A stretch of 60,746 bases of DNA from Eubacteriales bacterium (GTDB lineage: Bacteria > Bacillota > Clostridia > Oscillospirales > CAG-272), in contig JAZOVD010000041.1 in the NCBI GenBank assembly GCA_045658525.1, positions 1 through 60,746 on the forward strand, written 5' to 3'. Numbering within the stretch: position 1 is the stretch's first letter; every line of letters begins with the position of its first letter. Below the pieces are notes generated by a model. That model was not told the origin of the DNA. It ran no database searches and worked only from the letters and a program-made list of their open reading frames with translations. The translations under genes and the position numbers were made by a program. Shown piece by piece: positions 3,966 to 60,746 of this stretch.

Positions 3966-4079
3966 ACCGGTACTCCTTTTGAAATTTTAAATTGTGTTTT
4001 GTGAAAATTGTACGGGTCGTCGAAGGCGCCGACCCCTACGAGTTTTGATGAGATTTTAAGTTTCGGAAGATATTTCTGC

Positions 4080-4177
4080 CTTTTTGCGAAGCAAATAACA
4101 AATCCTTTTCTCGCACGCTACACAACAAGGTAGTGTGCGAGAAAAGTTTTTTGCCTACTTTTTTTCAAAAAAGTAGG
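4080..4177 (-). repeat. Intergenic hairpin repeat, inverted orientation
   Basis: Contains CTTTTTGCGAAGCAAATAACAAA, a 16-bp stem (4105-4120 / 4131-4146) and the palindrome CCTACTTTTTTTCAAAAAAGTAGG (4154-4177), which overlaps the ribF 3-prime end. Confidence 0.8.
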
Positions 4178-5082
4178 AAGTATTCCTCTGTAACTTTACA
4201 ATCCTCCTCGATCGCTTGACGGAGAGTGTCGAGAGACGGGAAGCGCTTTTCGGGTCTCAGATAACGGTAAAGCTCGACCGTGACGGTTTTTCCGTACAGA
4301 TCGAAGCGTTTGCCTATTATATGCGTCTCGCAGGTTACGTCGCTTGCATCAGCGTTTACAGTAGGGCGAAAGCCGATATTCGTTACCGACGGGTAACGGA
4401 TACCGTCAATTACCGAAGCCGAACAGTACACCCCGAAACGTGGAACTACCCGTCCGTGTTCGAGCGACTGGTTAACGGTAGGAAAATCCATAGTCCTGCC
4501 TATGTGCTTGCCCTCTGTTATCTTAGCGGTTATTGAGAACGGACGCGCAAGGAGCATACGCGCCTCCTCGACGCTTCCGTCCGCTATAAGCGAACGTATA
4601 TAGGTAGAGCTTACCTTTTCGTTTTCTTGCGTTAACAGCATTACGGGTTCGATTATCGCTACCTCCGCGCCAAGCTCTCCCGCAACGGCTTTTAACGTCT
4701 CGGCTGAGCCTTCTCTGTTATGCCCAAAGCGGAAATCGCGCCCGCAAACGAATTTTTTTACTCCGAGATCGTTAAAAAGCCGAGTAATAAACTCTCTCGG
4801 CGTAAGATCTTTTATCGCGTTGAAATCCTCGCAAACAGCGTACTGAACTCCAAGTTCGCCGCATATCATAAGACGCGCATCTACGCTTTCTATATACGAG
4901 CCCCCGAAAGGCTTTGAAAACGTCCAGACAGCGGATACGTATCCCCTTTTTTGGTCTTTAACGGTTTCCTCTATAAGCGCTCTGTGACCGAGATGAACGC
5001 CGTCAAAGCACCCAAGAGCGCAGGATACGGGCAAGCTTATTCTATTTACAGGAGAAATACCTTCGCTAAGCTTGTATATCAT
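4165..5082 (-). CDS. ribF: Bifunctional riboflavin kinase / FMN adenylyltransferase
   Basis: 305 aa. Motifs GCFDGVHLGHRALI, GRDFRFG and FPTVN. Confidence 0.9.
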   Translation of the reverse strand: MIYKLSEGISPVNRISLPVSCALGCFDGVHLGHRALIEETVKDQKRGYVSAVWTFSKPFGGSYIESVDARLMICGELGVQYAVCEDFNAIKDLTPREFITRLFNDLGVKKFVCGRDFRFGHNREGSAETLKAVAGELGAEVAIIEPVMLLTQENEKVSSTYIRSLIADGSVEEARMLLARPFSITAKITEGKHIGRTMDFPTVNQSLEHGRVVPRFGVYCSASVIDGIRYPSVTNIGFRPTVNADASDVTCETHIIGKRFDLYGKTVTVELYRYLRPEKRFPSLDTLRQAIEEDCKVTEEYFLLF

Positions 5083-7414: not shown

Positions 7415-7570
7415 TTAAGAGCGTTTATTGTTATTCTGGTTGTTATTCTGACTGTTGTTCTGATTGTTATTCTGCTGATTCTGATTATTGTTCTGCTGAT
7501 TTTTGCTGTTCTTCTGACTATTGTTTTGATTATTATTCTGCTGATTGCGGTTCTGGTTGTTCTGATCCAT
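7415..7570 (-). CDS. 51-aa Gln/Asn-rich low-complexity small protein
   Basis: MDQNNQNRNQQNNNQNNSQKNSKNQQNNNQNQQNNNQNNSQNNNQNNNKRS. The RBS GGAAAGGAG lies 8 nt upstream of the ATG at 7570-7568, and a terminator follows directly. The ORF-track entry (7415..7804) extends it upstream without support. Confidence 0.6.
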   Translation of the reverse strand: MDQNNQNRNQQNNNQNNSQKNSKNQQNNNQNQQNNNQNNSQNNNQNNNKRS

Positions 7571-15846: not shown

Positions 15847-15854
15847 GATTTTCT

Positions 15855-16075
15855 CCTACTTTTTTGAAAAAAAGTAGGCAAAAAACTTTTCTACTACGCC
15901 ACATTGGTATATGGCGTAGTAGAAAAGAATTTGTTTATTTGCTTCGCAAAAAGGAGTGAAAATCTGCGTCAAATTTAATACCATCACTCTATGATATGAC
16001 ATTAAAATTTACACAATGGTACCCATAGAGAAGTCTTTGCCAAGCTTTCTTCAGAAAGCGGGAAAAATGAACGTA
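15855..16075 (+). repeat. Intergenic hairpin repeat (core 15855-15953 plus accessory module 15985-16060)
   Basis: Palindrome CCTACTTTTTTGAAAAAAAGTAGG, stem 15886-15900 / 15913-15927, and TTTGTTTATTTGCTTCGCAAAAAG. The accessory module is shared with 36734-36809. Confidence 0.85.
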
Positions 16076-18675: not shown

Positions 18676-19302
18676 ATGATAAATATTCTGTATTCGGATA
18701 AAAGCATTATAGTATGTGAAAAGCCGGCGGGCGTTCTTTCGCAGAACGACGCTAAGGGCGAAAAGGGACTCACTGAGCTTCTCGTACCGTATTCGGAAAC
18801 GGGACAGGTCTATCCTGTGCATAGGCTTGACAGACCCGTTGGCGGAGTTATGGTCTATGCCTGCGACAAGGAAAGCTGTGCTAAACTCTCGGCTGGATGC
18901 GCGATCGACAAAACGTATCTTACGCTTGTAAGCGGTTGTCCCGAGAGAGAAAAGGGTGAGCTTTTCGACTACATCTATAAGGACGGCGCGAAGAACAAAA
19001 GCTTTGTAGCTTCAAAGGAGCGTAAGGGTGTAAAGGACGCGCGTCTTTTGTACGAGGTCGTTGACAGAGACGAGGAGCGTGACGTTACGCTCGTTAAGGT
19101 CCGTCTGATAACGGGAAGAACGCATCAGATACGCGTTCAGTTCTCCTCGCGTGGAATGCCCGTCGTCGGTGACGGCAAATACGGTAGCCGCATAAAGGAC
19201 GAATTTATCGCTCTCTGGTCACACCGCATCTCGTTCGTTCACCCCAAAACAGGGGATATTGTGGAGTTTGATAGTTTTCCCTACTTTCTTGAAAGAAAGT
19301 AG
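18676..19302 (+). CDS. RluA-family pseudouridine synthase (short form)
   Basis: Motifs HRLDRPVGGVMVYA and GRTHQIRVQFS. The last 7 codons and the stop lie inside the repeat palindrome. Confidence 0.85.
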   Translation: MINILYSDKSIIVCEKPAGVLSQNDAKGEKGLTELLVPYSETGQVYPVHRLDRPVGGVMVYACDKESCAKLSAGCAIDKTYLTLVSGCPEREKGELFDYIYKDGAKNKSFVASKERKGVKDARLLYEVVDRDEERDVTLVKVRLITGRTHQIRVQFSSRGMPVVGDGKYGSRIKDEFIALWSHRISFVHPKTGDIVEFDSFPYFLERK

Positions 19303-19545
19303 GCAGAGAACTTCTCTCACACGCCACCGTGATACGATAGCGTGTGAGAGAAACATTTGATTATTTTGCTTCGCAAAAAGGCAAGAAAAACAATCAATAT
19401 TTCACTAAACCATATCTCTATGTGAACCCCTCGGAAGTGAAAAACTGTTCAAGGGTGAAGCAAGAGTTTGACTGTAAGTTTCTTTCTTTTTCTTTGCTTC
19501 GTTTCTTTTTCTTTCTTTACAAAGAAGGAAAAAGAAATGAAGAAA
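19280..19545 (+). repeat. Intergenic hairpin repeat, long form (core plus pyrimidine-rich module), upstream flank of argF
   Basis: CTACTTTCTTGAAAGAAAGTAG, CTTCTCTCACACGC..GCGTGTGAGAGAA, TTTTGCTTCGCAAAAAG, then TTTCTTTCTTTTTCTTTGCTTCGTTTC..ACAAAGAAGGAAAAAGAAA. Closely matches 20598-20885. Confidence 0.88.
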
Positions 19546-19568
19546 TAAATATTCAAGAGGTACAAAAA

Positions 19569-20555: not shown

Positions 20556-20564
20556 CAGTATATA

Positions 20565-20590
20565 AAAAACGCCCCTTGGGGCGTTTTTTG
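20565..20590 (+). terminator. Rho-independent terminator of argF
   Basis: AAAAAACGCCCC-tt-GGGGCGTTTTTTG. Confidence 0.85.
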
Positions 20591-20597
20591 TTATCTA

Positions 20598-20885
20598 CCT
20601 ACTTTCTTGAAAGAAAGTAGGCAAAGAACTTTTCTCACACGCTACCGTGATACGATAGCGTGTGAGAAAAGTGTTTGTTAATTTGCTTCGCAAAAAGAAG
20701 AAAAAACATCAATATTCCACAAAACACCGTATTCCGATATTTCACTAAACCACATCTCTATGTGAACTCCTCGGAAGTGAAAACTGTTTACGGTGGCAAT
20801 AAAAGTACGACTGTAAGTTTCTTTCTTTTTCTTTGCTTCGTTTCTTTTTCTTTCTTTACAAAGAAGGAAAAAGAAACGAAGATAA
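20598..20885 (+). repeat. Intergenic hairpin repeat, long form, downstream flank of argF
   Basis: Same module order as 19280-19545, including an identical stem loop CCGTGATACGATAGC. Confidence 0.88.
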
Positions 20886-20996
20886 AAGGATAATGAAAAT
20901 AAATTATATTAAAAGAAATTCCGTTGTATCACAACTATAATAATCGGCATATTATGTAACGAATGGGAGAAAATTTCCCCGAAAGGAGCGTTTTAT

Positions 20997-21709: not shown

Positions 21710-22168
21710 TTGTACACAAGAAATTACAGACAGATAAATAACAGACCTGAAATACCGCTTGCGTCCGCCGAGGAGGTAAGCGAGCAGACCGTTGAGCGGC
21801 TCGAAGTCGAAACAGAAATTCCCCCGGGTTACAGCGGAACGGCGCTTCTTCGTGATAGAGACGATGAGAGCGAAGCCGATAATGTACCGGTCGAAGCTGA
21901 GCCTCAAAGGGAGGTGCGGCGCGTCAGAAGATATAAGCTGGCGCGCGACATAAAACACTCCGAAATGTGCGCCGACGAGCAAAAAAAAGAACCCCAAAAC
22001 GAGTGTTTGGAGTTTAAAGAGGCTGCTCCCGTCAAGCCGTGTTTGAGGGAACGTATATTTTCGATAGAGGATATGCTGCTTTCCGCGCTTATCGTTCTTC
22101 TGCTCAGCGAGGGCGCGGACGATATGACCGTTCTTATTCTCGGCTTTTTGCTGATTTCGGAGTTATGA
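21710..22168 (+). CDS. Hypothetical protein with a C-terminal hydrophobic tail (152 aa, TTG start)
   Basis: TTG at 21710 is the only in-frame start after the stop at 21674, with a GAAAGG RBS 9 nt upstream. C-terminus MLLSALIVLLLSEGADDMTVLILGFLLISEL. Confidence 0.55.
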   Translation: MYTRNYRQINNRPEIPLASAEEVSEQTVERLEVETEIPPGYSGTALLRDRDDESEADNVPVEAEPQREVRRVRRYKLARDIKHSEMCADEQKKEPQNECLEFKEAAPVKPCLRERIFSIEDMLLSALIVLLLSEGADDMTVLILGFLLISEL

Positions 22169-22170
22169 TT

Positions 22171-22430
22171 TTCTCTTCTTTCTTGGAAATGAAAGTGATT
22201 GTCCTGCGGACAATTGCAAAGAACTTCTCTCACACGCCCACTTGGTATGAGCGTGTGAGAGAAAGCATTTGTTAATTTGCTTCGCAAAAAGTGGGAGAAA
22301 TCTCGCAAACGATAATGTTTACGTCATAAAAGCGTTTGAAGGGGACGGGATCCCCAAGGGGTGGGGAGGATCGCAACTCCCCGCCCTTGGGTCGTCCTTT
22401 GGTTACTTTCCCACGATCGGGAAAGTAACG
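22171..22430 (+). repeat. Intergenic hairpin repeat (variant core 22171-22292) followed by GC-rich hairpin modules
   Basis: CTTCTCTCACACGC..GCGTGTGAGAGAAAG, TTTGTTAATTTGCTTCGCAAAAAG, then GGGGACGGGATCCCC / GGGGAGG..CCCCGCCC / TTACTTTCCC..GGGAAAGTAA hairpins. Confidence 0.8.
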
Positions 22431-36185: not shown

Positions 36186-36428
36186 TTAGTCTTTTATGAG
36201 TTCTTTGATGCAATATTTGCAGACGCATTTGTCGTGGAACGTAACGGTATCGTTATCGGAACCGCAAAATACGCAGGAGGGTTCGTACTTTTTGAGAATG
36301 ACAGTGTCTCCCTCAACGAAAAACTGTATGTCATCAAGGCGTTCTACGCCCAGAGTCTTTCTAACCGGCTTGGGTATAACTATTCTTCCAAGACTGTCTA
36401 TTTTTTTGATAAAACCTGTTGATTTCAT
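36186..36428 (-). CDS. abrB: AbrB/SpoVT-family transition-state regulator
   Basis: MKSTGFIKKIDSLGRIVIPKPVRKTLGV... (SpoVT-AbrB swapped-hairpin N-domain) plus a Cys-rich C-terminus. Confidence 0.88.
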   Translation of the reverse strand: MKSTGFIKKIDSLGRIVIPKPVRKTLGVERLDDIQFFVEGDTVILKKYEPSCVFCGSDNDTVTFHDKCVCKYCIKELIKD

Positions 36429-36551: not shown

Positions 36552-36578
36552 TGGCATTTGTTTGAATAAATGGTGTAT

Positions 36579-36815
36579 TTCTCTTCTTTCTTGAAAGAAA
36601 GAATCAAAGAACTTTTCTCACACGCCCACTTGTTATTGAGCGTGTGAGAAAAGAATTTGTTATTTGCTTCGCAAAAAAAGGGAAATACGCAATTTCTTCA
36701 TTTATATATTGTGTTTATAAATACATAATACGTCGCTCTATGATGAAATATCAAAATTTACACGCTGGTACCCATTCAAAAGTCTTTGCCAAGCTTTCTT
36801 CAGAAAGCGAAAACT
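36579..36815 (+). repeat. Intergenic hairpin repeat (core 36579-36680 plus accessory module 36734-36809)
   Basis: CTCTTCTTTCTTGAAAGAAAGAAT, CTTTTCTCACACGC..GCGTGTGAGAAAAG and TTTGTTATTTGCTTCGCAAAAAAAG. The accessory module matches 15985-16060. Confidence 0.85.
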
Positions 36816-36908
36816 CTTCCTATTTATATATAGGGGCTGTGCGGGGGTAAAAATAATATTCCTGAAAAAATAAATTTATGAATTATTTGTAAATATTGCA
36901 AAAAGGTA

Positions 36909-36937
36909 TTGCAAAAAAAATCCGTATATGCTATAAT
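36909..36937 (+). promoter_or_regulatory. Sigma-A promoter of the S10 operon
   Basis: TTGCAA (36909-36914), a 17-nt spacer, then TATAAT (36932-36937). Confidence 0.65.
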
Positions 36938-37188
36938 GATAGGGCTTGAAGTAACGCGAACAACGGAGATTGCCCATAAAAGTTCCTTGTTATGGGGTAA
37001 CTTCGGGTTCGTAAACACCCGTTTTTCTCGAAAGAGAGAAGCGAGGAGGCCGGAGTAAACGGTCTTTTGCGGTCAAGGTGTGCTGCGCCTTCCGGCGTGG
37101 CGCAAATTTTTGCTGCCAAAGCAATGAAACACCCGAAACCGTGTGAAAAGATGACGGCTCCGAACTTAAATTAAAGGAGGAAAAACCA
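36938..37188 (+). promoter_or_regulatory. 5-prime leader of about 250 nt for the S10 operon (candidate r-protein autoregulatory RNA)
   Basis: Non-coding, with hairpins such as CCCATAA..TTATGGG and GCGCC..GGCGC followed by AAATTTTTG. No defined motif was recognised. Confidence 0.35.
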
Positions 37189-52304: not shown

Positions 52305-52718
52305 ATGGGAACCAGAAAACTTGGCAGACCTACCGCTCATAGAATGAGCATGCTTTACGGAATGGTTGCTTATCTTATCGAAAACGGTAAGATCGAGACT
52401 ACCCTTACCAGAGCAAAAGAGGTCAGCTCATTAACTGAAAAAATGATAACTCTGGGCAAAAAAGCGGGACTTGCAAACTTCCGTAAAGCCCTTGCGGTTC
52501 TCCCCGAGGAGACAGCTAAGAAGCTGTTTGACACAGTTGCTCCCAAGTATGCCGAGGTAAACGGCGGATATACTGCTGTATATAAGCTCGGACCGCGTAG
52601 AGGAGACGGAGCTGAAATGGCTCTTATCACTCTCACGGCACCGTCTGTACAGCTCGATACTCCCGCTACCGAGGAGAAGACTGAGGAAGCTAAGGTCGAA
52701 GTTGCTGACGCAGAGTAA
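52305..52718 (+). CDS. rplQ: 50S ribosomal protein L17 (short acidic C-terminal extension)
   Basis: LGRPTAHRMSMLYGMVAYLIENGKIETT. Confidence 0.96.
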   Translation: MGTRKLGRPTAHRMSMLYGMVAYLIENGKIETTLTRAKEVSSLTEKMITLGKKAGLANFRKALAVLPEETAKKLFDTVAPKYAEVNGGYTAVYKLGPRRGDGAEMALITLTAPSVQLDTPATEEKTEEAKVEVADAE

Positions 52719-52720
52719 GA

Positions 52721-52885
52721 TCTTCCTTCTTTCTTGAAAGAAAGAAGCAAAGAACTTCCCTCGCACGCACCCTTAATATGGGGCGTGCGAGGGAAGTGTT
52801 TTTTTGTTTTATTTTGCAAAAATCAACAAAGCTTCGAGTGTAAGTTTCTTTTTTTACAAAGAAGGAAAAAGAAGTGAAGAAGGGG
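52721..52885 (+). repeat. Intergenic hairpin repeat (divergent copy) directly after rplQ
   Basis: CTTCCTTCTTTCTTGAAAGAAAGAAG, stem CTTCCCTCGCACGC (52755-52768) / GCGTGCGAGGGAAG (52783-52796), TTTTGTTTTATTTTGCAAAAA, and a short pyrimidine module. Confidence 0.8.
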
Positions 52886-54050: not shown

Positions 54051-57000
54051 ATGAAGATTAAAACAAGAATAACTTCGTTTCTCTTGCTGCTCTGTATGCT
54101 GATAGGTATGATGCCTTTATCAGCTATATCGGTGTTTGCAAGCGGAGACAGTACGGAAGAAAAGGAGGACGCAACGGTGAAGATCGAAGAAGAACTTAGC
54201 GATTATATTCAGGGCGGAACGCAAGAGTTTACTGACGACGGATATATAGGCATACCTTACGAGATCACCGTTTATTACGATGCATCTAAGGGCTCGACTA
54301 AGTCAGGCTATAACGGAACTCCCGTAATACTGTACATAGTAAACAGCTCAGCTGAAAGACTTGGAACCGAGACTGACGTAAATATCATTACGTCTATGAT
54401 TGAACGCGGATACGTCGTAGCGGTCCTCGACTATTTAAATAACGCAAAGGCTGTAAGCCCCGGACTTGAATATTCTGTCCAGAAGATAAGAACGAAGCTC
54501 AGAACCGGTACTTACTTTAAAGACAAGACCCTGTTCCCCGGCAGTGCTTACCACGAGAACCACGCAGTTCCCGCGGGACATAACGTAAGTCTCAGTAACG
54601 TTTTCTATGAGATAGATAAGCACGGAACTGACGGAACTATCGAAAGAATAGTTCACGTCTGGAACGAGGATTTCAGAGGCGTAAAGCGTGATACAGTCGT
54701 CAAATGGGTGGACGAGGACGGAAACCGCAAGACCACTCAGAACGGCTTTGATGACGGTAAATACCCTGTCGAGCCCGTTTGGTACGCCGACGCGGCGGGA
54801 ACAACGGTAGATAACGAAAAAGGTCAATATACAAGGTTGAGATACACCAAGGCAATGACGATAACCGATTGCGTTCAGAAGGACGGAAGCCCTCTTGATT
54901 TCAGCCTTTATATGCACGTCATTTATCCCGATAAGCCTTTAAATGACGTTCCCGTAATGACGCTTGCAAGCTCGTCCGAGCATATTACGTCGGGAACTTA
55001 TACCGAGTCAAGACCCTATCTTGTAGGCTATTCTCTTAACGGATACGCGGTATCTGTTTACGACTTTGAGTACGTTCCGATGTCGAGAAACGACCATTAC
55101 GGTTATTTCTCGGGCGATCAGGTGGGCGGTATAACGGGTCAGAACGGAACGTTCGCGCTCGGTTCGTTCAACAGAAGTAACTACAATACCGCGGCAATAA
55201 GATACCTTCGTTATCTTTCGATAACAGACCACGATACCTTTAAGTTCGATAACGATAGATTCGGTCTTTACGGAAACTCCAAGGGAGGATTCCAGACCTT
55301 CCTCGGTGCGGCGGCACTTCGAGAGAGCGCGACTGTTGACGAGTTCGGCGGAAGCGCAGAGGCTCTTGCGGCTTACGTTGATAAGAAGGTAGCGACCTTC
55401 TTAAACGATGGTTACATCGGCGCGACCGATCCTATTACGGGCATTCACACGAAATACGACGGTAATTCCCGTTATCAGAACGGTAAGACCGAGGATATAG
55501 TTAAAGGAAGCTACGTAGTTCATGGCGGAGAGTTGCAGCCTTGGCTGACCTATACCGACGAAAACGGCGTTCTCCGCGAGATACCCTCAGGACTTCAGTG
55601 GGTATATTCCAGCTGCGGCGGAACTACTATCCAGCCTTGGGAAAACCACGCTCCCGTATTTACCGCGGCTAACTACTACGATAACTTCGGAAGCGGTTAT
55701 AGTACCCATAACTATCTTGAAAATCTTCTTCGTATATATGACATTCCCTCGTTGTTCTTCGAAGCTCCGCTTCAACACGACGTAATTTCCGGACTTGACG
55801 TAAACTACGGAGTAGATGGCTACGACGCACTCTTTAAGCATACGGCTTATTACCTTAAAGATACGCCCGTAAGCGTGGTTTACAGCATACCCGCAAACGG
55901 CGACGCGGGTGTAAAGACTACCGACGGTATAACCATCAGATTCTATGGCCCCGTTGCCGCAGAGGAGATAGCTAAGGTAGTTATCAAGGACGAAAACGGC
56001 AACGTAGCACAGGGCGAATGGGTGTCCGGCTACGGCAAGACCCAATGGGTATTTAATCCCGTTGCTCTTAACGGCGGTGTAAAATATACCGTAACTGTTC
56101 CCGCGTCGCTCAAAGGCGATAACGGTAAGGAAATGGGTGCAGAGGACAGCTTTACGTTCTACACCAAGGGCGAAAGCGCGGTTGACTTTGAGATAACCAC
56201 TCCCGTTTCCGTAACTAACGAGAACGGAACGTATTTCAAGTTCACCGTTCCTTCTTCGCTTACCGCGCCGAACAATACCCTTAAGCTCCGCTTTAAGGTA
56301 TCTAACGCCGCGGCTAACGTAGCGCAGATCTACGAGGCAAGCTCCGAGACCGACACTGCGGGTGCGATGATCGGCAAGATAAACCTCAAAGGCGCAGGCT
56401 ACTACGAGTACGACGTTACCGACTATGTAATGGGCAAGACCGCGGGCGAGACCGTTTACTTCCTCGTCAAGGCGGCAAAGGCGGTAGTCGATACCGTAAC
56501 CTATTCTCACGATTTTGCCAACATCGGTGATTTCGTAAAGGGCGGCTCGCTTTCTACACCTGAGTTCGTTACCGAGGTAGCGGGCGAGGCTGTAACGGCT
56601 ATGAAGGTCTATAACACAGGCATCGGTGGCTGGTATCCCGTTGTTCTTTCCAATAATAAGATAATAAACGGCGGCAAAGCAGTTACCGAGGACGACTACG
56701 GACGCACCTTTATGATAAAGCTCAGAGTTTATGATACGGCTTCCCGTCCGTTCCAGCTCTGGTTCAACGACTGTACCAACGGCTCGGAGACCACGGGCGA
56801 TTACAGTTACACGAGAACGGCTACTCACACAGTAGCGGGCGAGTGGATAGAGGTCAGTGTTCCTTATACCGTATATGAAATGGACTACGGTGTACAGGAG
56901 CAGGTAAAGCAGTTCAAGCTCGTTGCTTATTCCACGGGCGGAACCCTTGCTCCTTATTACATTGATAACTTCACTGTTACCGAGCACGTGACCGCGATAG

Positions 57001-60000
57001 AGATAAGCGAGGCTTCTCTCGTTACTACGGCGGTCGGAAACGACGAGTATAAAGCTCCCGAGGGCGAAAAGCCCGTATCCGTTAAGAACGGAACGCAGTA
57101 CGCTACCTGGTGGGAGGCTGTAAATAACAACGGCGGTGTTATAACCTTCCTTTCCGATTATGATTTCTCGCAGAGCGGCGACCATAACCTGATTGCGGCA
57201 ATAGCTAACCTTACTATTGACCTTAACGGCTATACCGTAAGACTTTCCGATAACGGACTTCTCAACTTCTCGGCTCACTGGAAGCCCGATACCGTAAACT
57301 ATACCATAAAGAACGGTACGATAATAGTTGATGACGCGCCGATAATCAATCATCTCAGAGCTAATACCGACGGAACGGTCACCGAAAAGATATACAATAT
57401 CACCTTTGATAACGTATATATTACCACCGCAGAGGGTGCGGCTGTAAAGAGCATTATAACCTCTCCTACCGCTCCCGACGGAACGAATATAATACAGCAC
57501 ATAACCTTCAACGACTGCGTTATAGACGTAAACAGACGCGATATGCCTAAGTGTCCCGTTACGGTATTTTCAAACGGAAGTGGTAATATCACTACCGACT
57601 ATACCTTTAACAGCGGTGAGATAATCGTTTCCTCTACCACCAAGCTCACGCTTTGGGAGAATGGAGATAACGTTTACTTCAAGGCAGACGAAAACGGTGA
57701 ATTTACCACTATAAGTACAACTGAGGCTTCTTCTGTTTCGAGCGAGCTTAACGCTCAGAGCGATAAGGGATTTGCAACCCTTGCGCTTGATAGCGCGGCA
57801 AACGGTTGGAAGCTCTATAGGGTTACGGGTGCGAAGTACGCCACTCCTTACGGAGTTATTCCCGACGATAAGGACCCCGAGACGTATCCCTTCGCGGCAT
57901 TTACGGGCGGCGAGCTTATAGGTCTTTACACCAAGTTCAGCACAAACTCCGACAGCGACAAGGATCACGCGCTCTACGCCGCGTGGAAAAACGCGGCAGG
58001 CTCCGCCAGAGGCGAGCATAATAATGAGATACAGATCTTCCTTCGCCGTGATTACGATATGACGACGGGCGCGGACGTCGGCTTCCCCAACATTGCTCAG
58101 ATAGGCGGAACGCTCGTTATAGACCTTAATAGCAATACGCTCACTATGAATAGCGATATGGCGTTTATAAGCCTTACCTCTAAGTACGGTTATGACCCGA
58201 ATTGGAGCGGAAAGAACAGCGTAAACGGCGGTAACCACATTTATCCCTCTAACTTCGTAATAAAGAGCGGAGAGATAGTGACAAACGGTTCTCCCCTGAT
58301 CAGCTATTCCTCTATGTCCTCAAAGAACAGTGACGGCTCGGATAACACTAACGTTCTCAACCGTTACGACAAGCAGAAGGTCACGGATATACTGTTCGAC
58401 GGTGTTGAAATTGACGCTAAATCTCAGATGATCAGTACGTCAAACACCTCAAATCAGGAATTCGGTGCGCTCTGTAACGTCACGTTCAATAACTGCGATC
58501 TTGACATCAGCAGAATAACCGGCGCGGCTACACTCTTTGATGGAACCGATACCGCTTTGATGAATGACCTTAACGTCAAGATAAACGGCGGTAATATAAC
58601 CGCTTCCCAGATATCCGCTATAACGCTTTCCGCACTCGATACCGACGAAACCTTGGTATTTGGCAAGGATGAGAACGGAAGCTACACCACGCTCACGATG
58701 CCCGCCACCGCTGAACTTGCGGTATTCGGTGGTGTAAACGATGAGGGCAAGTACGTTGAATTCGGAAACGGCGTAGCTGACGGCGATAACAACGTTTATT
58801 CGCTCAAAGCCAGCACGATGATAACGGAGTACGGTATTATTCCGAGCGAGTATGCGGATACCACGGCTTATCCGTTCGCTATATTCACGGGCGGAAAATT
58901 CGTAACGGCTACCGCTTATTGGGTCACTGCGGGACCGGAGAACAACTACGCGCCAAGCACTGACTCTGTTCTTCAAAGTATGCTTTTATACCTTAGAGGA
59001 ACATATACCACTCAGTATCAGGTGCTTTTGCGTCGTGATTACGATGCCGCATCAACGGGTAACACATCGAACACTAACTTCCCGAACTTTGCTCAGATCG
59101 GCGGAGAATGGATACTTGATCTTGGCGGAAATACGATTTCCTTCCCGTCAACCCAAAGTATGATCAATATGAGCGCGACGTACGGTTATGACGGCGCAAT
59201 ATCTCCGAAGAAAAACCACGTTTATCCGTCGTCCTTCATAGTAAAGAACGGAACGGTAAACAATAATAGGGTATTAATAGAACAATCCTGCCGCAATACC
59301 GCCAATGCAAATTGGGATACTGATAAAATATCTAATATAACCTTTGATAACGTTATACTTAACGTTCCGGCTGCGGGAGTACTCAGCGTTAGCCCTACCT
59401 GCCACGCAACTTACAAGCATTATCTCACCCTTACGCTTAATAACTGTGAGATAAACTTAAAGGCAAACAACACCACGCTCTTTAAGGGTGCGGCAAGCAC
59501 TGTCAATAACAGAGCTTACGTTACCGTAAACGGCGGTCAGATAAACGCAGGCGGTTATACGGGTACAACGATAGCGAACTTCCCCGCTTCTGCGGACACC
59601 TTTACTCTCGGTAAGGGCGAAAACGGCTACCTCGAATATACGGCAACCAAGGCTGGCGTACCCTCTGCGGCGGCGTTCAACACCACCGAAAACGGAGCTT
59701 CCTACTTCGGTAGATATTCTATGGCGGTTTCGGGCAGCGTTAAGACTTACACCTACCGTCTCGGCTCTCAGACAAAGTACGGAGTTATTCCCTACGATTA
59801 TACGGCAAATGACTATCCGTTTGCGGTATTCTCTGACGGTGAGCTTATCGGCGCGTTCGCTGTACTGATAGACAACAACGATAATGACGGAATAAAGTAC
59901 GACAATAAGATAGGTGGCGTATCGAGTGCGTTCGAGCAGGCGAGAGCTATTCTCGTAGGACGTAGCGGAAATAGCGCGCAGATACTTGTCAGACGTGATC

Positions 60001-60746
60001 ATACTATTGACGTTACGAAAGCAGCCGGATATAACAACTTCGCGCACTTCGATGGAGAGTTTGTTCTCGACCTTAACGGAAAAACTCTTACGCACGACAG
60101 CACCAACCCCGTGTTCTCGGTTGATGCAAAGCAGAGCTACAACAACTATGACAGTAAGACGTACGTTCCGATAGCTAACGTGACCATCAAAAACGGTACT
60201 CTTATCACCAAGGGCGCGCTCATAAGGTTCAGTACCTTAAACAGCGCTAATTACAATAACGCAGACGGATATAAGATTATGAACTACGTTTTCGAGGATC
60301 TTAATGTGGTTTATAAGAATGAGAGCTACACCGCGCTTATCGCGTATCCGAGAGCAATGTCAAGCTACAACACCGTAAAGCAGGCAGATTTCAATATCAC
60401 GCTTAATAACTGCACGCTTGACGCAAGCGCGATTACGGCAGCTTCGCTCCCGCTCGTTGTAGGTAAAGACCTCGATACGAGCCTTAACTTAAATGACGTA
60501 AACGTAGTTATAAACGGCGGTAAGATAATCACTAATGCTACCAAGATCACCGCAGGCTCGTTCAACGAGATAGTCGGTGAAAACGGCGATAGCCTTACCT
60601 TCGGTAAGTATAACGACAGTTACACCACCTTTACAGGCGTAAACGTTCCTACCGACGTATTTGATACGACCGAGGGCTACAAAGCAGTATTCGGCAAGGT
60701 AGGAGAGATCTACACGCTTGTACCCGCTGAGCTGAAAATAGTCGGC
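54051..60746 (+). CDS. Giant secreted multidomain protein, first 2232 codons (open at the right edge): signal peptide, alpha/beta-hydrolase (esterase-like) domain, Ig-like domain, CBM-like modules, and tandem beta-helix-like repeats of about 320 aa
   Basis: GAAAGGAG RBS. MKIKTRITSFLLLLCMLIGMMPLSAISVFA signal peptide. GNSKGG nucleophile elbow near 55270. I translated 54051-55320, 55800-56220 and 57300-60746 by hand and found no stop. The remainder is inferred open, because the ORF track shows no competing + strand ORF and omits edge-truncated ORFs. Confidence 0.85.
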   Translation, partial: MKIKTRITSFLLLLCMLIGMMPLSAISVFASGDSTEEKEDATVKIEEELSDYIQGGTQEFTDDGYIGIPYEITVYYDASKGSTKSGYNGTPVILYIVNSSAERLGTETDVNIITSMIERGYVVAVLDYLNNAKAVSPGLEYSVQKIRTKLRTGTYFKDKTLFPGSAYHENHAVPAGHNVSLSNVFYEIDKHGTDGTIERIVHVWNEDFRGVKRDTVVKWVDEDGNRKTTQNGFDDGKYPVEPVWYADAAGTTVDNEKGQYTRLRYTKAMTITDCVQKDGSPLDFSLYMHVIYPDKPLNDVPVMTLASSSEHITSGTYTESRPYLVGYSLNGYAVSVYDFEYVPMSRNDHYGYFSGDQVGGITGQNGTFALGSFNRSNYNTAAIRYLRYLSITDHDTFKFDNDRFGLYGNSKGGFQTFLGAAALRESATVDEFGGSAEALAAYVDKKVATFLNDGYIGATDPITGIHTKYDGNSRYQNGKTEDIVKGSYVVHGGELQPWLTYTDENGVLREIPSGLQWVYSSCGGTTIQPWENHAPVFTAANYYDNFGSGYSTHNYLENLLRIYDIPSLFFEAPLQHDVISGLDVNYGVDGYDALFKHTAYYLKDTPVSVVYSIPANGDAGVKTTDGITIRFYGPVAAEEIAKVVIKDENGNVAQGEWVSGYGKTQWVFNPVALNGGVKYTVTVPASLKGDNGKEMGAEDSFTFYTKGESAVDFEITTPVSVTNENGTYFKFTVPSSLTAPNNTLKLRFKVSNAAANVAQIYEASSETDTAGAMIGKINLKGAGYYEYDVTDYVMGKTAGETVYFLVKAAKAVVDTVTYSHDFANIGDFVKGGSLSTPEFVTEVAGEAVTAMKVYNTGIGGWYPVVLSNNKIINGGKAVTEDDYGRTFMIKLRVYDTASRPFQLWFNDCTNGSETTGDYSYTRTATHTVAGEWIEVSVPYTVYEMDYGVQEQVKQFKLVAYSTGGTLAPYYIDNFTVTEHVTAIEISEASLVTTAVGNDEYKAPEGEKPVSVKNGTQYATWWEAVNNNGGVITFLSDYDFSQSGDHNLIAAIANLTIDLNGYTVRLSDNGLLNFSAHWKPDTVNYTIKNGTIIVDDAPIINHLRANTDGTVTEKIYNITFDNVYITTAEGAAVKSIITSPTAPDGTNIIQHITFNDCVIDVNRRDMPKCPVTVFSNGSGNITTDYTFNSGEIIVSSTTKLTLWENGDNVYFKADENGEFTTISTTEASSVSSELNAQSDKGFATLALDSAANGWKLYRVTGAKYATPYGVIPDDKDPETYPFAAFTGGELIGLYTKFSTNSDSDKDHALYAAWKNAAGSARGEHNNEIQIFLRRDYDMTTGADVGFPNIAQIGGTLVIDLNSNTLTMNSDMAFISLTSKYGYDPNWSGKNSVNGGNHIYPSNFVIKSGEIVTNGSPLISYSSMSSKNSDGSDNTNVLNRYDKQKVTDILFDGVEIDAKSQMISTSNTSNQEFGALCNVTFNNCDLDISRITGAATLFDGTDTALMNDLNVKINGGNITASQISAITLSALDTDETLVFGKDENGSYTTLTMPATAELAVFGGVNDEGKYVEFGNGVADGDNNVYSLKASTMITEYGIIPSEYADTTAYPFAIFTGGKFVTATAYWVTAGPENNYAPSTDSVLQSMLLYLRGTYTTQYQVLLRRDYDAASTGNTSNTNFPNFAQIGGEWILDLGGNTISFPSTQSMINMSATYGYDGAISPKKNHVYPSSFIVKNGTVNNNRVLIEQSCRNTANANWDTDKISNITFDNVILNVPAAGVLSVSPTCHATYKHYLTLTLNNCEINLKANNTTLFKGAASTVNNRAYVTVNGGQINAGGYTGTTIANFPASADTFTLGKGENGYLEYTATKAGVPSAAAFNTTENGASYFGRYSMAVSGSVKTYTYRLGSQTKYGVIPYDYTANDYPFAVFSDGELIGAFAVLIDNNDNDGIKYDNKIGGVSSAFEQARAILVGRSGNSAQILVRRDHTIDVTKAAGYNNFAHFDGEFVLDLNGKTLTHDSTNPVFSVDAKQSYNNYDSKTYVPIANVTIKNGTLITKGALIRFSTLNSANYNNADGYKIMNYVFEDLNVVYKNESYTALIAYPRAMSSYNTVKQADFNITLNNCTLDASAITAASLPLVVGKDLDTSLNLNDVNVVINGGKIITNATKITAGSFNEIVGENGDSLTFGKYNDSYTTFTGVNVPTDVFDTTEGYKAVFGKVGEIYTLVPAELKIVG
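57040..60746 (+). repeat. Tandem in-frame coding repeats (about 316-329 aa per unit, at least 3.8 units) within the giant gene
   Basis: Anchor motif YG(V/I)IP at 57849, 58830 and 59778. Anchor RRD(Y/H) at 58044, 59031 and 59991. Recurrent motifs FPN(I/F)AQIGG, xTFxNxxI, NGGxI and FGKxENGxY. Confidence 0.8.

Follow-up and report, generated by a model that had tools for sequence, protein, structure and literature searches.

A 60,746-nt stretch of DNA from a Eubacteriales bacterium (contig JAZOVD010000041.1; hereafter the window, GC content 47.9%), a sporulating member of the Clostridia, carries a real, structured and dispersed family of repeats. We consider that these repeats probably constitute an undescribed non-coding family of the REP/BIME kind, behaving as a portable bidirectional terminator or insulator, with an identifiable probable ancestor in the terminator of the rplQ operon. 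Repeats of this type have received much attention in Proteobacteria but very little in gut Clostridia, and their origin and spread are debated. For comparison, syntenic contigs were reached through homologs of argF, bringing the DNA examined from this lineage to about 150 kb: L203 and L331, which belong to separate species (81% and 82% nucleotide identity to the window, respectively); L202 and L327, which come from one NCBI assembly (81% and 93%); and L119, from the same species as the window (98.6% in flanking DNA).

The original prediction, made from the letters of the window, had claimed eight copies of a composite repeat. A profile built from these copies recovered seven full copies and one partial copy, and nothing else in the window. 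The conserved tail of the element has four matches in the window with up to three mismatches, and its first palindrome (P1) has matches at seven loci; shuffled sequence gave none for either. Likewise, the pattern CTTTYTTGAAARAAAGN{3,4}CARARAAC matched seven times against an expectation of 0. Since A and T runs abound in the units and the contigs are products of metagenome assembly, one might suspect a chance low-complexity similarity or an assembly artefact. The empty shuffles refute this explanation, as do the consistent architecture, the covarying stems, and the occurrence of copies in independent NCBI and ENA assemblies and in complete plasmids of a cultured bacterium; we give it practically no credence.

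The core is an imperfect palindrome of about 120 nt with three predicted hairpins, namely P1, stem 2 and a mini-hairpin. It comprises, in order, a short outer inverted repeat, P1, an A-rich linker, the stem 2 hairpin with its GC-rich center, a T-rich tract and a degenerate second P1. P1 itself is an AT-rich palindrome of 22-24 nt, CYWCTTTYTT-GA-AARAAAGWRG, with about 10 pairs, nearly all of them A-T. Stem 2 has 13-17 pairs and becomes longer where the A-rich linker CAAAGAAC pairs with GTKTTTG. The predicted order of P1, second stem and tail was borne out in the copies, and the tail is indeed conserved; it is, however, no plain tail but itself a hairpin of 5-6 bp (TTTGC-TTC-GCAAA). This mini-hairpin represents a degenerate second P1, its middle having been lost: where related elements read ...AAAAG TCTTTTTG CTTCTTTTTCTTCAGAAAAAGAAG, the window family reads ...AAAAG TGTTTGTTAATTTG CTTCGCAAAAAG. 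The element also reaches further out than had been proposed, with outer inverted repeats GATTTTCTC (left) and GAGAAAATC (right), as read from the sequence. The profile of the window family aligns end to end (model positions ~12-112) with related elements elsewhere at E = 1e-8 to 1e-10. The fold of the copy at 20592-20706 has a minimum free energy of -46.8 kcal/mol (z = -8.4 against shuffles). Read on either strand, the core presents an A-tract, a hairpin and a U-tract, the pattern of a bidirectional intrinsic terminator, with weak AU hairpins flanking it. The copies and their accessory modules (A, B and the pyrimidine-rich Y) are as follows:

2023-2065, + strand: partial copy, a solo P1 with linker; the TAG of P1 (2050-2052) is the stop codon of the SpoIIR-like open reading frame (ORF).
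4070-4183, - strand: full core, inverted, running in the same direction as ribF; P1 at 4155-4176 with the ribF stop codon; stem 2 at 4105-4146.
15847-15964, + strand: full core, beginning right after the TGA of the U32 peptidase gene; left outer repeat GATTTTCTC at 15847-15855, P1 at 15855-15878, A-tract linker at 15879-15886, stem 2 at 15886-15927 (CTACTACGCC type), T-rich tract and mini-hairpin at 15930-15953, right outer repeat GAGTGAAAATC at 15954-15964.
15965-16075, + strand: module B, with a CTCTATG...CATAGAG hairpin and a terminal P1-like hairpin, GCTTTCT-TCA-GAAAGC.
19272-19389, + strand: full core; stem 2 at 19311-19353 (CTCACACGC type); P1 codes for the end of pseudouridine synthase (PYFLERK and the stop).
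19390-19548, + strand: module A (TTTCACT...AGTGAAA hairpin, ~19397-19443), then module Y (19474-19545), upstream of argF.
20592-20706, + strand: full core; stem 2 at 20629-20671; 3' of argF's own terminator (20564-20595).
20737-20885, + strand: second copy of modules A and Y, 88-96% identical to 19397-19548.
22167-22301, + strand: full core; stem 2 at 22224-22264; left end overlapping the preceding ORF's TGA.
36574-36688, + strand: full core; stem 2 at 36612-36653; in the divergent region between the AbrB-like gene and the S10 operon promoter.
36726-36811, + strand: second copy of module B.
52718-52832, + strand: full core directly 3' of rplQ; stem 2 at 52755-52796, then TGTTTTTTTGTTTTATTTT; orthologous in L119 and L327.
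52839-52885, + strand: module Y, truncated.

The optional extra modules that had been proposed are true repeats: 15984-16060 is 86% identical to 36733-36809, and 19441-19548 is 88% identical to 20780-20887. Module Y is a hairpin with a pyrimidine arm and a purine arm, of which 52845-52881 is a partial copy. The two composites of core, A and Y at 19272-19560 and 20592-20890 (~290 nt) are direct repeats, 86-96% identical and 1.3 kb apart, that flank argF, so that recombination between them would delete this gene; the sister species lack this arrangement. The copy at 22167-22301 has a degenerate P1 followed by a 21-nt hairpin insertion (22196-22216). This insertion, TGATTGTCCTGCGGACAATTG, 3' of P1 at 22171, is one of two nested hairpins, the other being AGCATACTTGTATGCA within stem 2 of site 1 in L203 (L203 6188-6203); CAGCATACTT (2065-2085), 3' of the solo unit at 2031, resembles AGCATACTTGTATGCA. 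These nested hairpin strings may represent a second micro-repeat.

The copies show a close relationship with gene ends. Across the lineage, 9 of 12 start 0-3 nt from the upstream stop codon or supply it, and 11 of 12 share the orientation of the upstream gene. All copies had been held to be intergenic. This fails for three of them, in which the preceding ORF ends at a TAG supplied by the 3' arm of P1 (SpoIIR-like, 1375-2052; ribF, 4165-5082 on the - strand; pseudouridine synthase, 18676-19302); hence, P1 encodes the last 7-8 residues of these ORFs. Repeat copies add or replace C-terminal residues of proteins; pseudouridine synthase ends in ...SFPYFLERK in the window and L203 and in ...SFPAFFSKKEK in L202, where the end codons form a shorter P1-like palindrome. 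The further claim that most copies adjoin the 3' ends of genes holds for the majority but not for the copy at 36579, which lies between the AbrB-like gene (36186-36428, - strand) and the S10 promoter. The copy at 20598 is placed after argF's own canonical terminator, and an ordinary GC hairpin terminator lies 3' of the partial copy, at ~2088-2115.

With respect to function, the copies are most likely transcription terminators or insulators between adjacent genes, judging from their architecture and placement, and possibly stabilizers of 3' ends. The copy after rplQ has 14 contiguous Watson-Crick pairs (and 3 more beyond one A-G mismatch) followed by seven U, and is kept at this site in three genomes; it is the predicted terminator of the ribosomal-protein/rpoA operon. 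Stem 2 hairpins scored as terminator-like on the - strand only. On a Pseudoroseomonas plasmid (73% GC), the 130 nt separating two convergent genes are taken up exactly by a related element. Alternatively, the element could be the gene of a structured non-coding RNA, or could regulate downstream genes as a leader of the riboswitch, attenuator or thermosensor type. Its fold is very stable, composites precede argF, the gene next after it and the S10 operon, and related half-units occur 20-50 nt upstream of the starts of groEL, hslU and folP in Acetobacteraceae contigs. However, the genes that follow have no function in common, the S10 promoter comes after the element rather than before it, most copies adjoin an upstream stop codon and one is inverted in sister species. 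Moreover, the loops vary freely, with no conserved unpaired nucleotides of the kind expected of a ligand pocket, and there is no Rfam match. We therefore regard a non-coding RNA or leader as very improbable.

The stems of the element covary strikingly. In an alignment of 15 stem 2 copies from the window, L119, L203, L331 and L327, 8 of 15 pairs change on both sides (34 cells) and none on one side only, as the predicted paired substitutions would have it. Overall, 93.8% of the stem 2 cells are paired, and sliding the pairing partner by 1-3 columns lowers this to 35-62%. The covariation is strong, with a score of 0.381 against 0.127 in shuffles, none of the 500 shuffles reaching the observed value. 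At the site between pseudouridine synthase and argF, three species have three distinct, perfectly paired stems (CTCACACGC, CTACTACGCC and CTAAAACGC), and the loops vary freely among copies, having rightly been called unrelated. The same tendency extends to P1: among the 266 units collected, whatever their source, the inner Y/R pair reads C-G 140 times, T-A 124 times, and T-G and C-A once each, and pairing at the three outer positions, which use several pair types, amounts to 90-98%.

This had been taken as a sign of selection on structure rather than on sequence. The strong covariation of the stems stands, but the paired substitutions have another possible source in symmetrization at the DNA level. 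The changes in stem 2 are all full Watson-Crick swaps with hardly any G-U wobble intermediates, and the sense and antisense folds have much the same stability, that of the antisense being slightly greater; thus, the constraint looks like one of strict Watson-Crick symmetry. A DNA hairpin or templated symmetrization (template switching at quasi-palindromes or conversion from arm to arm) would fit these patterns at least as well as compensation in RNA. Orthologous stems with wobble-free paired changes offer a means of testing selection at the RNA level against symmetrization at the DNA level.

The copies are not confined to the window, as related genomes carry them as well. Four intergenic regions contain a copy in each of the window, L203 and L331, with differing stems, modules or orientation. 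Copies are thus kept at the same sites across ~18% nucleotide divergence, with their hairpin arms still complementary. First, at site 3, after argF, the window has a forward copy with modules A and Y, and L203 and L331 have inverted copies devoid of modules. This difference, together with the 86-96% identity to the composite upstream of argF, indicates that the ~290-nt composite was duplicated from site 2 in the window. Second, the site between the U32 peptidase and AI-2E-transporter genes has module B in the window, A and Y in L203, and an extra inverted half-element in L331. Third, the site between pseudouridine synthase and argF has A and Y in the window and L331, and B in L203. In L202, from a fourth species, the four regions are short (102, 30, 109 and 59 nt) with no profile match to the element, and sites 3 and 4 have their own unrelated terminators. 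One simple copy is nonetheless present in the L202/L327 genome, directly 3' of rplQ, consisting of a P1-like hairpin, linker, stem 2 and T run, which is orthologous to the window copy at 52718. No copy was found in ~20 kb from relatives with 88% ornithine carbamoyltransferase (OTCase) identity.

Turnover is also apparent within the species. The rplQ copy of L119 is 84% identical to that of the window, against 98.6% in the flanks, and resembles other copies; it is a copy replaced within the species. Replacement, inversion, duplication and re-assortment with modules A, B and Y probably proceed by gene conversion between copies. Contigs of the same species break inside or just after the element, suggesting that such repeats may help to fragment metagenome assemblies.

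We found no enzyme that might account for the spread of these copies. The scanned ORFs of the window include no transposase, as had been noted, and no integrase; nor does the gene annotation of the syntenic contigs. No RAYT (Y1 HUH transposase) or other HUH/RAYT-like mover is encoded in the window, and no recombinase in the window or adjoining units. An IS200-type TnpA query gave no match in the collected loci by tblastn, and in a sample of loci the longer, gene-sized intervals flanked by inward-facing units proved to contain ordinary genes but no transposase. No duplicated flank indicative of a target-site duplication was seen at window copies with readable ends. Terminal inverted repeats are present, namely GATTTTCTC and GAGAAAATC together with P1 and the degenerate P1', and elements of the wider superfamily described below have conserved inverted ends of ~46 nt.

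We propose that the family would have arisen from a native terminator of the kind still present after rplQ, with the L202/L327 rplQ copy as the best candidate for the ancestral state. It might then have been copied into other intergenic regions, mostly flush with stop codons, by a mechanism that leaves no target-site duplication. The likeliest movers would be an HUH/RAYT-like enzyme acting in trans on single-stranded DNA hairpins, or recombination at P1-like palindromes. The copies persist and turn over, probably by gene conversion between them, and would serve as terminators or insulators, possibly with a role in 3'-end protection.

Several observations weigh against this proposal. Two of the four "empty" sites of L202 carry P1-like remnants, so that gain and loss are not fully polarized. 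Identical occupancy in three species speaks against transposition being frequent at present and is in keeping with vertical retention over a long time. With no mobilizing enzyme found and ~150 kb of the lineage examined, the term "mobile" rests on comparative inference. As to termination, the U-tract is interrupted in most copies (UGUUUGUUAAUUUGC), and with one copy after a good terminator and one in a promoter region, termination cannot explain every copy. Fold stability likewise gives no transcript-strand signal for a role in RNA.

Some of these points favor another history, in which the copies are native, vertically inherited structures of 3' untranslated regions or terminators, homogenized by gene conversion between short palindromes, with no transposition-like process ever having been involved. 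The shared occupancy of the four sites in species ~18% apart, the L202 remnants, the orthology of the rplQ copy in three genomes and the replacement of a copy within one species would all be expected under it. Yet unrelated loci, one of them a promoter region, share ~100-290 nt of common sequence including modules and outer repeats, and conversion alone cannot create new homology. The compact L202 regions with unrelated terminators at sites 3 and 4, and the same P1 unit in other phyla and phages, also stand against it. We rate this purely vertical origin as unlikely, though worth serious consideration, and continue to favor a dispersed family of portable terminators or insulators.

Beyond the lineage, the P1 core proved not to be unique to these Clostridia, being part of a much wider superfamily. 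The pattern of P1 plus linker was found at 81 loci in viral contigs of IMG/VR, the JGI virus database, and a stricter version at at least 120 metagenome loci, with GC fractions of 0.31-0.72 among the matches listed. The conserved length is ~46 nt per unit. Units occur singly, in inward-facing doublets and in back-to-back doublets (22 cases); 94 of 112 convergent pairs lie 20-120 nt apart, and 87 lie 20-80 nt apart. Units of alternating orientation bracket genes or short cores. Their density reaches about 1 unit per kb in Acetobacteraceae contigs; the window has 8 units in 60.7 kb. Hosts, named from neighboring proteins or records, include Acetobacteraceae as well as metagenome-assembled genomes of Gemmiger formicilis, Phascolarctobacterium faecium and Bacteroidales; in the last of these the variable core consists of a perfect, long hairpin whose sequence is arbitrary. 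One unit lies on a contig with myovirus-like tail genes, and five phage contigs carry the same element, all in one orientation.

A ~45-nt unit (S-TTCTTTYTTGAAARAAAGAA-S' CAAARAAC TTTT) is thus shared nearly base for base by the Clostridia of the window, Oscillospiraceae (Gemmiger), Negativicutes (Phascolarctobacterium), Bacteroidales, Acetobacteraceae (including replicons of 73% GC), contigs of tailed phages and one single-stranded DNA microvirus. We tentatively suggest that it might be a cross-phylum, REP-like structural module of DNA or RNA, a possibility about which we remain more doubtful than confident. A palindromic block common to phyla and phages is unexpected for REP-like repeats and hints at an unrecognized common partner. 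If the suggestion is true, it would imply both a conserved recognition partner, such as a promiscuous enzyme acting on single-stranded DNA hairpins or a universal host factor, and a general mechanism that makes portable bidirectional terminators.

Individual loci of this superfamily show further arrangements. Back-to-back doublets in peat Acetobacteraceae (L230 2223-2297, L226 1215-1282, L267 4039-4113) separate groES from groEL, precede hslU and occur in ftsH-folP; as the linker ends 20-50 nt before the start codon, these must be transcribed through. In L243 (6737-6860) and ~15 other contigs of Phascolarctobacterium faecium, the unit is joined to an AGCGC...GCGCT hairpin, downstream of an autotransporter gene and elsewhere, with flanks that diverge at once; this looks like a species-specific subfamily. 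A single Microviridae genome from cattle blood (MG945182.1, L329; 5790-5945) has one half-unit (AAAAGTTTTTTG GTTCTTTTTTTCAAAAAAGAAC) directly 3' of a long GC-rich hairpin in its main intergenic region. A general link to Microviridae was dropped, as this is the only microvirus genome with the unit and VP1/VP4 are encoded at none of the other loci.

The alternation of units around short cores or whole genes could alternatively mean that P1 is the target of a site-specific recombinase, a nucleoid protein or a partition protein, with the segments between units shuffled as cassettes, comparable to Neisseria dRS3/NIME or Acinetobacter pdif. The swapping of modules and inversion of a copy between species at the same site point in this direction, as does the pseudouridine-synthase site of L202, a single palindrome whose arms align with the outermost arms of the window composite. 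Nevertheless, the central spacer of P1, at 2-4 nt, is too short for a tyrosine-recombinase crossover, and P1, as read from the sequence, is unlike the cores of dif, attC or hix. Half-sites would need no covariation, yet the inner pair of P1 covaries with just 2 mismatches. Furthermore, no recombinase adjoins the units, and the uniform orientation in the five phage contigs reveals no inversion polymorphism. We accordingly hold such recombination cassettes to be improbable.

The window otherwise includes SpoIIR-like, YtvI-like, ribF, U32 peptidase, pseudouridine synthase, OTCase (argF) and AbrB-like regulator genes and an S10-spc-alpha cluster ending in rpoA and rplQ; no tRNA genes were detected in it. 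The AbrB-like ORF at 36186-36428 (- strand; MKSTGFIKKIDSLGRIVIPKPVRKTLG...) is absent from the ORF list. Upstream of rpsJ (36900-37188), a strong promoter-like TTGCAA-N17-TATAAT (36909-36937) precedes a GC-rich leader of ~230 nt, for which Rfam gave no match at threshold. Between the element and the terminator of the DUF975 gene lies a GC-rich imperfect palindrome, GGGGACGGGATCCCCAAGGGGTGGGGAGGATCGCAACTCCCCGCCCTTGGGTCGTCC (22320-22400), absent at that site in L202, L203 and L331. At 7421-7564, periodic repeats of 9/12 nt (ATTCTGNTTGTT-like, in 7 copies that overlap one another) within ORFs that overlap on both strands are probably a low-complexity coding repeat. Finally, a series of ORFs without Pfam match at 54435-60746 (- strand), sharing internal DNA repeats (58563, 59508, 60492; 57381, 59319), may code for paralogous surface or secreted proteins.

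The prediction had recognized no named family, and none was found: the whole window gave no Rfam 15 match at gathering thresholds, and relaxed scans returned only sub-threshold generic hairpins (miRNA precursors, and a Phe leader at 40.5 bits against a threshold of 55). Literature searches with the core sequences and the topic found no description. The window composite of ~300 nt had no match in cultured phage or plasmid collections, and the 17-nt tail WTTTGCTTCGCAAAAAG had only chance or unrelated hairpin matches in genome contigs. TTTTGCTTCGCAAAA occurs in many unrelated genomes (L014-L118) as the top of longer palindromes, such as GTGATATTTTTTGCTTCGCAAAAAGTGATAT in Acutalibacteraceae, which appear to be other repeat families.

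Several specific readings were also rejected. The tail as a Bacteroidetes promoter (TTTG / TAnnTTTG) was dropped as SpoIIR, YtvI and other markers are those of a Firmicute. As a sigma-70 or sporulation-sigma promoter it fails on a hexamer spacing that varies over 18-21 nt and on promoters of S10 and of an AraC gene that lie downstream of elements. An "omega interposon" function, with three-frame stops in the purine-rich outer flanks, was discarded, these flanks closing fewer frames than shuffled controls. An integron attC lacks its R''/R' core sites (RYYYAAC / GTTRRRY) and an integrase here, and the neighbors are housekeeping genes. Sigma-32, LexA, CIRCE, dif, attC and hix sites were rejected by eye, their defining cores being absent.

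Among known systems, the predicted likeness to the mosaics of REP/BIME elements or miniature inverted-repeat transposable elements is upheld. REP, BIME and REPIN elements are known from Enterobacteria and Pseudomonas, where RAYT Y1 transposases mobilize them. Like the window family, they are short extragenic palindromes in many copies, single or in inverted doublets, forming mosaics without target-site duplication; they are long-lived and mostly vertical, and can terminate or stabilize transcripts. The doublet typical of REPINs is present, with its second unit degenerate in the window. In contrast to REP, the window family has no GTAG/CGTC tag outside the stem and a unit of almost pure A/T: five window copies have CTAC...GTAG inside the stem and the others CTTC...GAAG, and P1 in the 266 units ends mostly in CTT/AAG (93) or GTT/AAC (91). 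REP families are, moreover, lineage-specific, whereas the P1 unit is nearly identical across phyla. No REP/RAYT system is known to us from sporulating Clostridia, and literature searches on this found nothing specific.

Correia elements and dRS3/NIME of Neisseria are likewise small intergenic repeats with inverted ends and possible terminator activity, and NIMEs resemble the window family in having variable segments bounded by a conserved palindromic repeat. Unlike the window family, Correia elements have a TA duplication, 26-bp terminal repeats and an IHF site, and dRS3 is ATTCCC-N8-GGGAAT; both lack any sequence relation to the window family and are confined to the genus. BOX, RUP and SPRITE of Streptococcus pneumoniae and bcr1 of the Bacillus cereus group are modular, hairpin-forming intergenic repeats of Firmicutes without a transposase of their own. 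Like the window family, BOX is composed of ordered modules, of which the middle one varies in number. All four nevertheless appear unrelated to the window family in sequence and modules, and RUP and bcr1 make target duplications. None of the four is known beyond its particular genus or group. Paired DNA uptake sequences (DUS/USS) share with the window family a short motif found about once per kb, often as inverted pairs in 3' intergenic terminators, but have cores of 9-12 nt, belong to one naturally competent family and lack three-hairpin units and accessory modules.

Bidirectional Rho-independent terminators have the same A-tract, GC-containing hairpin and T-tract, and lie at the 3' ends of genes and between convergent genes. 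Ordinary terminators are not mutually homologous, whereas the window copies share ~100 nt and flanking AT palindromes, and sometimes lie after a terminator or in a promoter region. The window family resembles both the REP/BIME/REPIN elements and portable bidirectional terminators, although it does not demonstrably share the defining features of either.

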